This document shows positions 50,279 to 51,940 of a stretch of DNA of 64,000 nucleotides, piece after piece. The stretch comes from Escherichia coli (GTDB taxonomy: Bacteria; Pseudomonadota; Gammaproteobacteria; Enterobacterales; Enterobacteriaceae). Where the stretch lies: NCBI RefSeq assembly GCF_030013595.1, contig NZ_CP122768.1; one strand, written 5' to 3'. A program made the position numbers and the translations under genes. The notes beneath the pieces are model-generated. The model was not told the DNA's origin. It made no database searches and saw only the letters and a program-made list of their open reading frames with translations. How positions within the stretch are numbered: position 1 is the stretch's first letter; the number at the start of each line of letters is the position of its first letter.

Positions 50279-50359
50279 GCGATGGTTCTCCAGGTTTACG
50301 GGCAGGTGGTTAAGACACAATAAACCGGAAGAAGGCGAAGATCGAGTGGATGTTCAAAG

Positions 50360-51364
50360 TCAGTCAGGAAGTTGATGAAGAATTTGCCCCAGTCGCTCTT
50401 GCAGCGAACCCGAAACCGAAAGATAAGGAATGTTCCTGCGCGATAATTCCTGTTCGTACCACGCCTGCTGCCGCGCGCGAAACGCCTCTCCTTGCCGGGT
50501 GCCATCCTGCACAAAGGGAAATTCCGCGCCGCAAAGCACCACCAGAGAGTATTCCCGCTCCGCCAGCTGGTGAAGTTCTTGCGGGGCATGACCATATTGA
50601 TCAAGGGTATAGAACAAGGTCGTGAGTGGCGATGTGTCACATATAAGATAGCGATTAGCTTCTGCTTGTTGTTCCCGACGTACCTGTTCGCGGGCGATAT
50701 GCAACAAATCGTCTGCGGTTAAAACACCATTTTTCTCTTCCCAATAGTCGCGACCAAATTCAGCGACATACGCCGTATCGAGCACGTCCGCCAGCGCTTT
50801 TGAAAGTGTGCTCTTACCGGTTGATTCGCCACCAAGCAGACAGATACGGCGAACGAAACTGCGATAAACGTCGTGCGCCAGCATGTAGCGATAGCGGTGA
50901 ACGTCGGAACGAATCAGCGTTCCCGAAGGAGATTTATCGCCACGTGGACGTTGTAATCGAATGTGTTCAACAGGTTGGGCAAAACGCTTTGTCAGCACTT
51001 TAGCAAAACCGTCACCATAATCTTCTGCGGTAAATACAGCGTGTGGGCGGCAACGTAATACCTGCAGGCACAGCGTCGCCACATAATGACGATGGATGTC
51101 GGCATCGGCATCATTATGCGGTATGGCAGGTAAGTTATAACGCGCGATCAGTTCGGGAGTCAGTACCAGAACCGTCGCTCGCGGGAAGCGCACTTGCAGC
51201 CACGTCAGGCGCTTTTCAGGTTCACAGTCAGGCATTTCCGGCACGGAATAACTGATGATGAACAGTTCTTCACATTGTGCCAGCGCGGTATTGATCAACC
51301 GTTCATGACCACAATGCAAAGGCGCGAATTTGCCAACCACCAGTCCCGTTACGAAACGCTTCAT
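50360..51364 (-). CDS. NadR-like bifunctional enzyme lacking the HTH domain: nucleotidyltransferase (NMNAT-type) plus P-loop ribosylnicotinamide-kinase-like domain
   Basis: 334 aa from MKRFVTGLVVGKFAPLHCGHERLI (H-x-G-H nucleotidyltransferase motif) and downstream Walker A LLGGESTGKST; ATGA overlap with the upstream PnuC-like gene; track ORF starts 8 codons earlier at 51388. Confidence 0.7.
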   Translation of the reverse strand: MKRFVTGLVVGKFAPLHCGHERLINTALAQCEELFIISYSVPEMPDCEPEKRLTWLQVRFPRATVLVLTPELIARYNLPAIPHNDADADIHRHYVATLCLQVLRCRPHAVFTAEDYGDGFAKVLTKRFAQPVEHIRLQRPRGDKSPSGTLIRSDVHRYRYMLAHDVYRSFVRRICLLGGESTGKSTLSKALADVLDTAYVAEFGRDYWEEKNGVLTADDLLHIAREQVRREQQAEANRYLICDTSPLTTLFYTLDQYGHAPQELHQLAEREYSLVVLCGAEFPFVQDGTRQGEAFRARQQAWYEQELSRRNIPYLSVSGSLQERLGQILHQLPD

Positions 51365-51918
51365 GATGCCCGCAGCTCCTTGCGCCACTGATACAAACCA
51401 TGCCAGGCGTTAATCCAGAACAGGAAATATAAACCGGCGGTCAGGTTTAAACCGCGCGTCATATACAGTGGCACCGCGAGGGTATTCACTGCTAACCAGA
51501 CGTACCAGTTTTCGATACGTCTTCCCATCAACATGAATTGTGCCAGAACGCTGAAGGTCAAAATCAAAGAGTCCAGCCAGGGAGCCCAGGCATTGGTAAA
51601 GGTGTGGAGCAAAAAGCCGTAGCCGCCTGCCACGACGACGGCACAGAGCAACAAGAGGAAAAAGTGACTGGCTTGCGTCCGGCGCACCGGCAAGACATCG
51701 CCACCCTGACCTTTCAGCCAGTGGATCCAACCGGTGATGCTGGTCGCGATGAAGAATAACTGGAGCGTGACATCGGCATAGAGTTGCACGGACCAAAAAA
51801 CCCAGCCATACAGCATGCTACCAATTATGCCGATCCACCACGTATGCACATTGTTTCTGGCAGCCAGCCAGACGGAAACCGCGTATGCCAGACACGCGGC
51901 GATTTCTGAATAAGACAT
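51361..51918 (-). CDS. PnuC-family nucleoside (nicotinamide riboside-type) transporter, short form
   Basis: 185 aa polytopic ORF with PnuC-like segments QLYADVTLQLFFIATSITGWIHW and RRIENWYVWLAVNTLAVPLY; GGAGGG Shine-Dalgarno; starts 22 nt after the alr stop. Confidence 0.7.
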   Translation of the reverse strand: MSYSEIAACLAYAVSVWLAARNNVHTWWIGIIGSMLYGWVFWSVQLYADVTLQLFFIATSITGWIHWLKGQGGDVLPVRRTQASHFFLLLLCAVVVAGGYGFLLHTFTNAWAPWLDSLILTFSVLAQFMLMGRRIENWYVWLAVNTLAVPLYMTRGLNLTAGLYFLFWINAWHGLYQWRKELRAS

Positions 51919-51940
51919 TGTCCCTCCCTGGAGACGGGTA

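Follow-up and report, generated by a model that had tools for sequence, protein, structure and literature searches.

The window, a stretch of 64,000 nucleotides from an Escherichia coli genome (contig NZ_CP122768.1), contained two adjacent genes on the minus strand between alr and tyrB, predicted to encode a PnuC-like transporter and a NadR-like enzyme, respectively (Table 1). The coordinates, the stop/start overlap, the gaps of 22 nt and about 80 nt (81 nt in our count) at the two ends of the pair, and the host-like GC content reported in the initial annotation were all borne out by the sequence; the GC content of the pair was 0.51-0.53, against 0.50-0.56 in the flanks. Mobility genes, repeats, and tRNA genes were all absent from the borders. 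The nadR-like gene starts at the ATG at 51364, and its homologues and the RefSeq protein all begin with MK(R/P)F; the program-made list of open reading frames extends it upstream to a GTG at 51388. Translation of the two genes is coupled through the ATGA overlap, and the same ATGA or a GTGA overlap was found in the loci of Enterobacter, Kosakonia, Serratia, and Andreprevotia.

Table 1. Features of the alr-tyrB interval (positions refer to the window).
Feature	Position	Strand	Description
alr	51941..53020	-	Alanine racemase; upstream flank; stop codon 51941-51943
Leader, alr stop to pnuC-like start	51919..51940	-	22 nt; Shine-Dalgarno GGGAGGG (+ strand 51922-51928)
pnuC-like gene	51361..51918	-	185 aa; Pnu-family facilitator, predicted 7-helix core, without the extra N-terminal helix
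ATGA stop/start overlap, pnuC-like/nadR-like	51361..51364	-	Read from sequence; + strand tcat
nadR-like gene	50360..51364	-	334 aa; predicted NMNAT-type domain ~1-170 and P-loop ribosylnicotinamide-kinase-type domain ~171-334, without HTH
Spacer, nadR-like stop to tyrB GTG start	50279..50359	-	81 nt; 50279-50356 is the tyrB-proximal region of essentially all E. coli
tyrB	49085..50278	-	Aromatic amino acid aminotransferase; downstream flank; GTG start 50278

Both products matched Pfam domains (NMN_transporter, PF04973, E = 1.4e-48, model positions 1-175 of 175, for the transporter; AAA_28, E = 3.7e-33, residues 173-324, for the enzyme). Comparison of E. coli alleles gave dN/dS values of 0.06 (transporter) and 0.15 (enzyme) at a dS of about 0.3, which indicates long-term purifying selection. 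Because of these matches and dN/dS values, the two reading frames are not chance occurrences.

The PnuC-like protein scored 77.8 bits against TIGR01528, the equivalog model for “nicotinamide riboside transporter PnuC”, which is above the cut-off of 42.45, and it is named pnuC in RefSeq. Together with PF04973, this match supports the earlier assignment to the PnuC family of permeases. Its description as short did not hold, however, as 185 residues make up a normal seven-helix Pnu core and the protein covered the whole Pfam and TIGR01528 profiles. Similarity to the Neisseria mucosa PnuC (4QTN) was detected with phmmer (E = 2.6e-8). Identity to the PnuC of K-12 was 22%, and the models for enterobacterial-type PnuC (NF011926 / PRK15397) were not reached (64 bits, with a cut-off of 335). 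By these comparisons the protein falls in another branch of the family than b0751, the product of the nadA-pnuC operon, with which it has the WxxWxxxN motif in common.

The motif WxxW(x)3D/N, located in TM6, is the substrate-binding motif of Pnu transporters (PMC5749112). In the PnuC-like protein it reads WYVWLAVN (W138-N145), ending in N like that of the nicotinamide riboside (NR)-binding PnuC of N. mucosa, where the thiamine transporter PnuT has D. Pairs of Tyr/Trp gates, assigned by eye from alignments, were found at equivalent positions of the two three-helix repeats (LY46 with W64/W67, and LY163 with W172/W178). Pnu transporters are classed by the adjoining kinase, and family members also carry other vitamins (PMC5749112). 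The gene overlapping pnuC here is of the nadR type, and the two genes are likewise paired in Enterobacter, Kosakonia, Serratia, Ectopseudomonas, and Andreprevotia; we therefore counted the cognate kinase in favor of NR transport. By these criteria the protein belongs to the PnuC (nicotinamide riboside) subfamily, and it is predicted to transport NR.

The NadR-like protein fell far below the cut-offs of two NadR models, with 150.8 bits against TIGR01526 (nadR_NMN_Atrans, an equivalog_domain model; cut-off 341.15) and 96.1 against NF005988, which describes the trifunctional enterobacterial NadR (cut-off 201). Since the TIGR01526 cut-off was not reached, the protein is called simply “AAA family ATPase” by RefSeq/NCBI. 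The alignment with NadR of K-12 (28% identity) starts at residue 67 of NadR, past the HTH, which comprises residues 1-57 (PMC12421817), and the NadR-like protein begins only six residues before the GKF motif. The HTH is therefore absent, as the initial annotation had proposed. An AlphaFold model (pLDDT 92.1, pTM 0.85) was compared to the PDB with Foldseek, and the top eight matches were all full-length NadR proteins. The best of these was the trifunctional NadR of E. coli/Salmonella (b4390; 8x7f, TM 0.77), and 1lw7 (TM 0.65, E = 1.9e-19) and 6gye, 6gyf, and 6gzo (TM 0.65-0.66) were among the others; the best PDB matches by sequence and by fold (9x6f, 8x7f, 1lw7, and 6gye) were likewise all NadR. 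As modeled, the enzyme has the two-domain NadR fold, with an N-terminal Rossmann-type nucleotidyltransferase and a C-terminal P-loop kinase.

The two motifs that had been singled out earlier, GKFAPLHCGHERLI (residues 11-24) and GGESTGKST (residues 178-186), proved to be part of catalytic motifs that are conserved on alignment rather than degenerate. The nucleotidyltransferase domain contains GKFAPLHCGH (residues 11-20; GKFxPLHxGH) and SGTLIR (residues 147-152; SGTxxR), in which G11, K12, F13, L16, H17, G19, H20, and R152 were invariant among 39 sequences. Equally invariant in this set were the kinase motifs, namely Walker A (GGESTGKS, 178-185), Walker B (D243-T244), and the LID motif DGTR (287-290). 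Three of the invariant residues, K12, H20, and R152, correspond to K72, H80, and R212 of E. coli NadR, which bind ATP/NAD (PMC12421817). With all motifs for phosphoryl and nucleotidyl transfer conserved, the enzyme is predicted to have both activities.

One element of the NMNAT domain departs from this pattern. The loop P-(N/H)-G-W-x-x-(W/Y) is missing, and the sequence I-P-H-N-D-A-D-A-D-I-H-R-H-Y is found instead. The P-(N/H)-G-W loop is present in all four structurally solved NadRs, and we take it, from archaeal NMNAT, to contact the pyridine ring. In the subfamily to which the NadR-like protein belongs, the loop follows the pattern PHN-acidic run-(H/Q)R-x-(F/Y), and a Trp was found in 0 of 38 members. 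As the pyridine-recognition loop thus differs from that of characterized NadRs, the proposed pathway is least certain at its NMNAT step.

Neither a NadR operator nor a riboswitch was found near the pair. A search for the NadR operator (TGTTTA-N6-TAAACA, allowing up to 2 mismatches) returned no match between positions 50000 and 54600, leaving control of the pair by NadR unsupported; the four matches in the window as a whole are no more than expected by chance. Among RNA elements, a search of the whole window with Rfam found none near the pair; its only two matches, sraL and a SECIS element, lie in other parts of the window. A scan for promoters and terminators between 50200 and 53200 gave counts at chance level, including two promoter-like sites inside alr, and no relevant TyrR box (up to 3 mismatches) was found near tyrB. 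The 22-nt leader is itself too short to hold a promoter, operator, or riboswitch, and the leader in Enterobacter is equally short and carries GGGAAGG. Judging from this 22-nt gap only, the pair is probably transcribed together with alr. Because the leader is so short, expression would most likely come from read-through of the housekeeping dnaB-alr transcript, and would presumably be constitutive, rather than from control by NAD. A deletion of alr, as made in E. coli Nissle 1917, thus affects the promoter-proximal neighbor of the pair. In the literature that could be searched, no experiment on the two genes was found, and only an incidental annotation in a paper on Nissle 1917.

Taken together, these features make it probable that the pair is a second, chromosomal NR salvage module, independent of the NadR operator and of the “salvage III” kind, with a predicted substrate and two predicted activities. 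The seven-helix PnuC-like protein would carry NR, a form of vitamin B3, across the inner membrane by facilitated diffusion, and the C-terminal P-loop kinase of the NadR-like enzyme would phosphorylate it to NMN and so keep it inside the cell. Adenylation of NMN to NAD by the N-terminal nucleotidyltransferase domain would follow, with transporter and enzyme made from translationally coupled genes. The targeting of NAD synthesis by drugs assumes that NadD and NadE cannot be bypassed, and an additional enzyme leading from NMN to NAD would matter in this respect if it is active.

The architecture of the pair is not novel, since an HTH-less NadR beside pnuC is already known, and is the usual arrangement outside the enterobacterial NadR (PMC2330246). 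The prototype of the pathway from NR via NMN to NAD is formed by NadR (1LW7) and PnuC of Haemophilus influenzae, where a two-domain NMNAT and kinase likewise works with a PnuC facilitator. The HxGH, SxTxxR, Walker A/B, and LID motifs are common to both enzymes, but identity is only about 23%, and YPNGWQSW is found in H. influenzae where the E. coli pair has IPHNDADAD..HRHY. Moreover, the H. influenzae system is the sole route to NAD, while the E. coli pair is an additional copy in a prototrophic host. The NadR of Lactococcus lactis (6GYE/6GYF/6GZO) also lacks an HTH, and its two enzymatic domains are active on NR and NMN (PMC7221760); it is about 19-20% identical to the NadR-like enzyme and, unlike it, keeps the loop as MPNGWDEW. 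In contrast to the canonical nadR and pnuC of E. coli, which are unlinked, the genes of the alr-tyrB pair are adjacent and translationally coupled, with no NadR operator nearby.

Comparative genomics placed the NrtR-linked pnuC-nadR operons of Streptococcus and Hahella in “salvage III” (Rodionov et al. 2008, PMC2330246). These contain the same pair, and an orthologue of the NadR-like subfamily sits in such a cluster in Andreprevotia, where the pair (enzyme 58% identical) follows nrtR and adjoins pncA-pncB-nadE. Some palindromes lie upstream of nrtR in Andreprevotia, but they are given no weight here. The E. coli pair differs in having no adjoining nrtR and in apparently being expressed from the alr transcript. 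Homology alone is no proof of activity, however: the NadR homologue of Mycobacterium tuberculosis (NadRh, Rv0212c) showed neither NR kinase nor NMNAT activity in vitro (PMC3944813). NadRh is also HTH-less and a distant homologue of NadR, but has no PnuC partner. The pair is not the beginning of a new kind of biology, and is best seen as real but fairly ordinary.

Of the other explanations considered, the one that fares best keeps the architecture and the trapping mechanism but replaces the substrate: another pyridine riboside or nucleoside-like vitamin, for instance reduced NR or nicotinic acid riboside, would be imported and activated, or a mononucleotide other than NMN would be adenylated. 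The Trp-less NMNAT loop and the failure to reach the NadR equivalog cut-off fit this possibility, as do the other vitamins carried by Pnu members (PMC5749112). A paralogue of the same specificity would also look redundant beside the canonical NR system of E. coli. PnuT (thiamine) and PnuX/RibM (riboflavin) have the same seven-helix Pnu core and work by facilitated diffusion followed by trapping by a neighboring kinase (PMC5749112). These transporters, however, are encoded beside riboswitches and kinases for thiamine or riboflavin, and in PnuT the motif is WxxWxxxD. In the E. coli pair, on the other hand, the kinase domain is of the NadR type, the transporter is above the PnuC equivalog cut-off with an N-type motif, and no TPP or FMN riboswitch was found. 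The nrtR-pncA-pncB-nadE context of the Andreprevotia orthologues likewise speaks for NAD metabolism. We therefore regard a different substrate as unlikely overall. Similarly, there is only a small chance, suggested by the acidic, His/Arg-rich loop, that the enzyme is not an NMN adenylyltransferase and that a different riboside is salvaged or a different dinucleotide made, starting for example from a modified pyridine, reduced NR, or nicotinic acid riboside; if so, B2 E. coli and Enterobacter would gain a precursor route beyond the canonical NadR/PnuC.

Among 5,426 complete E. coli genomes, 867-868 (16%) carried the pair at the alr-tyrB site, and the full-length pair was found in 59 of the 59 full-length rows sampled. 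An allele of about 92% identity accounts for 786 of these carriers, is found in NU14 and in known B2 strains including UTI89 and ATCC 25922, and occurs mostly in human isolates. In K-12 MG1655 the pair is absent and the alr-tyrB spacer measures 252 nt, in line with the earlier suggestion of an accessory or differentially retained module. The 78 nt at 50279-50356 had a match of about 98.7% in 5,419 of the 5,426 genomes, with or without the pair, and Enterobacter keeps part of this stretch (31 nt at 93.5%). Beyond these 78 nt, a search of the K-12 spacer for remnants of the module found none. As the remainder is unrelated sequence, K-12 did not arise by a simple internal deletion.

Canonical nadR and pnuC were present in 5,424 of the 5,426 genomes, so that the alr-tyrB pair represents a second system. 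The carriers (UTI89, NU14, ATCC 25922, and several hundred others, as well as Enterobacter) would thus have a second, apparently unregulated route for scavenging NAD precursors, and NAD-precursor physiology derived from K-12 may not hold for them.

The near-universal canonical system could also mean that the pair is a redundant relic, an ancestral duplicate that contributes little and is being lost, as in most E. coli lineages. It is missing from about 84% of complete genomes, the Serratia oryzae copy of the nadR-like gene is N-terminally truncated and has no pnuC, and frameshifted or truncated nadR-like alleles occur in some E. coli lineages (P0056, and P0059, whose GKF motif also carries F13S). 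The frameshifted copies do show that the module is dispensable. Nevertheless, the copy in the window is intact, the full-length pair is kept in 867 genomes, the catalytic residues are invariant across genera, and the low dN/dS indicates selection over a long time, which together make a relic unlikely.

Outside E. coli, Enterobacter hormaechei, E. cloacae, two Kosakonia species, and another Escherichia species have exactly the same gene order, dnaB-alr-pnuC-nadR-tyrB-aphA. The pnuC-nadR pairing was kept in most loci examined, commonly with the ATGA or GTGA overlap. A 199-aa gene near the nadR-like gene of Pseudoduganella was tested as a hidden PnuC, and is not PnuC. The gene order common to Enterobacter and Kosakonia shows that the pair occupied this site ancestrally and that K-12-like lineages have lost it, making the description of the pair as wedged between tyrB and alr misleading.

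A further alternative, which concerns the history of the pair rather than its function, is that it entered the alr-tyrB interval recently as a horizontal island from a source beyond the Enterobacteriaceae core. Its presence within E. coli is patchy, the K-12 spacer holds no remnant, and the two E. coli allele classes differ at a dS of 0.24-0.32, against 0.07-0.10 for the flanking genes. In addition, similarity to Escherichia sp. MOD1-EC7003 is closer for the B2 allele than for tyrB, and together these differences suggest some exchange among Escherichia lineages. Against an island stand the conserved gene order, the host-like GC content, and the absence of mobility genes, repeats, and tRNA genes at the borders. 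The protein identities to Enterobacter (80/72%) and Kosakonia (72/68%) are also of the order expected under vertical descent, though below those of alr and tyrB. A recent island is therefore very unlikely, and any transfer is better read as homologous replacement within the genus than as island insertion. By its gene order, the pair is an old enterobacterial pair that was differentially lost, not a new island, and the locus offers a clean case of an ancestral pair that was differentially retained and swapped among Escherichia lineages by homologous replacement.

Finally, the idea raised in the initial annotation that the module replenishes NAD+ depleted by phage-defense or phage-attack systems is highly improbable and unsupported: phages are known to reconstitute NAD, and NadR-like genes without an HTH occur commonly among them (445 records, about 30% identity), but PADLOC gave no significant match (only a weak P-loop match, E = 0.003), the neighbors are the housekeeping genes alr, dnaB, and tyrB with no adjacent defense genes, the chromosomal position is kept across genera, and the phage proteins form a different, distant branch.

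Between alr and tyrB lie two minus-strand genes, encoding a PnuC-like transporter and a NadR-like enzyme. The sequence agrees throughout with the ORFs, ATGA overlap, spacing, and strand of the initial annotation, and the host-like GC content claimed there was also found (0.51-0.53 for the pair, similar to that of the flanks). In a mechanical ORF list, the NadR-like ORF reaches upstream to a GTG at 51388. Since the RefSeq annotation and every homologue of the protein start with MK(R/P)F, however, the ATG at 51364 is the real start. The borders of the pair contained neither mobility genes nor repeats. 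In K-12 MG1655, alr and tyrB are only 252 nt apart, in keeping with the short spacer given for K-12 in the initial annotation.

Coordinates of the pair and its borders
Feature	Position	Strand	Remarks
alr stop codon	51941-51943	minus	
Leader between alr and the PnuC-like gene	51919-51940	minus	22 nt; ribosome-binding site GGGAGGG
PnuC-like ORF	51361-51918	minus	185 aa
ATGA overlap	51361-51364	minus	TGA stop of the PnuC-like ORF overlaps ATG of the NadR-like ORF
NadR-like ORF	50360-51364	minus	334 aa
Spacer between the NadR-like gene and tyrB	50279-50359	minus	81 nt
tyrB GTG start	50278	minus	

Every criterion that could be tested places the 185-aa transporter in the PnuC family. It is matched end to end by the Pfam NMN_transporter model (E=1.4e-48), passes the NCBIfam PnuC equivalog TIGR01528 (77.8 bits, with a curated cut-off of 42.45), and aligns with 4QTN, the crystal structure of Neisseria mucosa PnuC (E=2.6e-8); its identity to K-12 PnuC is 22%. 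The earlier description as a short PnuC-family permease was thus right about the family, but not about the length: the conserved Pnu core consists of seven helices, and a further helix at the N terminus is missing from many PnuC proteins (PMC5749112), so that 185 aa is a normal core length rather than a truncation. The ligand motif WxxW(x)3D/N reads WYVWLAVN (residues 138-145), ending in N as in the nicotinamide riboside (NR)-binding PnuC of N. mucosa; PnuT, which carries thiamine, has D at this position instead (PMC5749112).

The 334-aa protein aligns from end to end with NadR models (TIGR01526, 150.8 bits) and with NadR proteins, and its residues 173-324 form an AAA_28 kinase domain (E=3.7e-33). 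Its alignment to K-12 NadR (28% identity) begins at NadR residue 67, past the HTH domain at residues 1-57 (PMC12421817), which is therefore absent, as the initial annotation had proposed. An AlphaFold model, built from an alignment of 39 sequences (pLDDT 92, pTM 0.85), had full-length NadR structures as all of its best eight PDB matches (TM 0.77 for 8x7f, 0.65 for 1lw7, and 0.65-0.66 for Lactococcus lactis NadR). The catalytic motifs were not degenerate: GKFxPLHxGH, the SGTxxR arginine, GGESxGK, E202-x-G-R205, D243-T244, and D287-G-x-R290 were invariant in alignments of 17 and 39 sequences covering Enterobacterales, the Pseudomonas group, and Betaproteobacteria. Residues K12, H20, and R152 are the counterparts of K72, H80, and R212 of E. 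coli NadR, for which mutagenesis and docking indicate a role in ATP/NAD binding (PMC12421817). By predicted fold and catalytic motifs, the enzyme belongs to the NadR superfamily. As it scores well under the curated NadR cut-offs and lacks the tryptophan-containing loop described below, we class it apart from NadR proper, in an HTH-less NadR subfamily of its own.

In their NMN adenylyltransferase (NMNAT) domains, all 4 structurally solved NadRs have a P-(N/H)-G-W loop (YPHGWDVW, YPNGWQSW, MPNGWDEW, and YPNGWPEY). Here, the P-(N/H)-G-W-x-x-W loop is replaced by IPHNDADADIHRHY (residues 81-94; DNA about 51083-51124, minus strand). All 38 subfamily members carry this form of the loop, which has P82, in most cases N84, then an acidic run, H/Q91, and invariant R92 and F/Y94, but no Trp. 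By analogy with archaeal NMNAT structures, this region would recognise the pyridine ring. It is improbable, in our estimate, that the adenylyltransferase domain, or the module as a whole, acts on a different substrate. A NadR homologue of Mycobacterium tuberculosis showed neither NR kinase nor NMNAT activity in assays (PMC3944813); that protein, however, has no PnuC partner, while the 334-aa protein does.

The reading that we prefer is NR salvage. Pnu transporters are facilitators, and a neighbouring kinase traps the substrate and marks the subfamily (PMC5749112); the kinase paired with the PnuC-like protein here is of the NadR type. An HTH-less NadR beside pnuC is the standard "salvage III" layout outside the enterobacterial regulator, as in nadR-pnuC-nrtR of Streptococcus and nrtR-pnuC-nadR of Hahella (PMC2330246). 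The Andreprevotia orthologue (58% identical) lies in nrtR-pnuC-nadR, adjoining pncA-pncB-nadE, and Ectopseudomonas carries the pnuC-nadR pair alone. Based on the kinase type, the salvage III layout, and the linkage to NAD genes in Andreprevotia, we propose that NR would enter via the PnuC-like protein, be phosphorylated to NMN by the C-terminal kinase domain, and be adenylated to NAD by the N-terminal domain. The module is taken to work like the PnuC/NadR systems of H. influenzae and L. lactis. Family, fold, motifs, and gene context all favour the NR uptake and NMN/NAD conversion put forward initially.

In Andreprevotia chitinilytica (L019 2574-2606 and 2703-2727), the divergent intergenic region between pncA and nrtR-pnuC-nadR contains two AT-rich palindromes, TTATTTTTATTTTGCAA... 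and TTAGTTTTATTATGAACATAACTAA, which are candidate NrtR operators. In Pseudoduganella flava (L017 2649-6093), a 53% identical nadR-like gene belongs to another operon, overlapping the stop codon of an upstream gene for an AMP-binding (acyl-adenylate-forming) enzyme and followed by a gene for a DZR-domain protein. No PnuC was found at this locus, a nearby 199-aa protein having been rejected as unrelated, and the same enzyme subfamily may have another use there.

Canonical nadR and pnuC were detected in 5,424 of 5,426 E. coli genomes, so the pair represents a second system in its carriers, and one whose regulation appears to differ. No NadR operator was found within 50000-54600, and an Rfam search of the whole window detected no riboswitch. 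A promoter scan gave nothing above chance, and the 22-nt leader is judged too short to house a promoter. Together, the lack of operator, riboswitch, and promoter space suggests that the pair is probably expressed by read-through from alr or dnaB-alr, independently of the NAD level. Elsewhere in the window, Rfam matched two features expected of E. coli, both on the plus strand: sraL, an sRNA (39307-39447), and a bacterial SECIS element (18957-19011).

Comparison of the alr-tyrB interval across genomes confirmed that the pair is accessory: among 5,426 complete genomes of E. coli, 868 have its internal 1.5 kb, each in a single copy, and K-12 MG1655 does not. A B2-type allele (about 92% identity to the window) accounts for 786 genomes, including UTI89, NU14, ATCC 25922, JJ2434, and APEC O1:K1:H7, which are known as phylogroup B2 strains. 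The window-type allele (at least 95% identity) is found in 82, the nearest being the pig isolate HCP5S3_I2 (99.9-100%). In that isolate, qorA is annotated as frameshifted (L001 10293-11229); the window has an intact ORF (54568-55554). Non-carriers share with the window spacer only the 78 nt beside tyrB; the other 174 nt are unrelated, with no module remnant found, and no partial forms were seen among E. coli genomes except one cut at a record end.

Several E. coli nadR-like genes are truncated or frameshifted (P0059, P0056, P0028, and P0077). In some alleles, a frameshift after DYWEEK removes Walker B and the LID, and P0059 additionally carries F13S in the GKF motif. As such genes occur in some lineages, the module is dispensable and is decaying in part of E. 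coli. A nadR-like ORF in Serratia oryzae (L010 4983-5948) is missing ~30 residues at its N terminus, the HxGH motif among them, and has no adjoining pnuC-like gene; it is probably a pseudogene remnant.

A synteny scan with one genome per species recovered the order dnaB-alr-pnuC-nadR-tyrB-aphA in Enterobacter hormaechei, E. cloacae, Enterobacter genomosp. O, two Kosakonia species, and Escherichia sp. MOD1-EC7003. Identities to the window for the PnuC-like protein, the NadR-like protein, alr, and tyrB were 80%, 72%, 88%, and 87% in Enterobacter, and 72%, 68%, 82%, and 86% in Kosakonia, which plausibly fits vertical descent. Other genera also keep the short alr-pnuC leader and an ATGA/GTGA overlap. 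The recurrence of gene order, leader, and overlap, with plausible identities, indicates that the pair is an old resident of this site, lost by most E. coli lineages, rather than an inserted island, and bears out the suggestion of differential retention.

Within the genus, the history is not purely vertical. Comparing window 50360-51918 with L014 6082-7640 (B2 strain WP4-S17-ESBL-03) and L004 105-1109, synonymous divergence from the B2 allele was 0.32 for the enzyme and 0.24 for the transporter, three to four times that of tyrB, alr, and dnaB (0.07-0.10); dN/dS was 0.15 and 0.06, respectively. Between the B2 allele and Escherichia sp. MOD1-EC7003, dS was 0.13, against 0.28 for tyrB of those genomes; at tyrB, the window agrees with the K-12 type at 99.5% identity. 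As the pair departs from its flanking genes, this pattern suggests homologous replacement between Escherichia lineages.

In WP4-S17-ESBL-03 (L014 1-4625, 10283-13658), the dnaB-alr-pnuC-nadR-tyrB block has other accessory neighbours than in the window. On its tyrB side lies a 2-oxoglutarate dehydrogenase-like E1/E2/E3 set, and on its dnaB side are LacI regulator and CoA-transferase genes. Between aphA and tyrB, the window has a 180-aa ORF (48321-48863, plus strand) in a 31-33% GC segment of an AT-rich stretch (48000-49000); the small gene yjbS occupies this place in K-12. The ORF had no PADLOC match, and the closest genome has only a partial hypothetical protein annotated there.

Both genes of the pair are already annotated in databases; RefSeq labels them "pnuC" and "AAA family ATPase" in carriers, and a paper on Nissle 1917 engineering lists the alr neighbour as "ribosyl nicotinamide transporter, PnuC-like" (PMC5394271). 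No experimental study of the pair was found in the searchable literature. The speculated link to phage defence found no support in the PADLOC defence profiles, and the phage relatives form a distant branch outside the subfamily of the window enzyme. Among the sources of these full-length HTH-less NadR-like proteins (445 phage records, about 30% identity) are phages of Salmonella, Vibrio, Klebsiella, and Escherichia, as well as Caulobacter jumbo phages.
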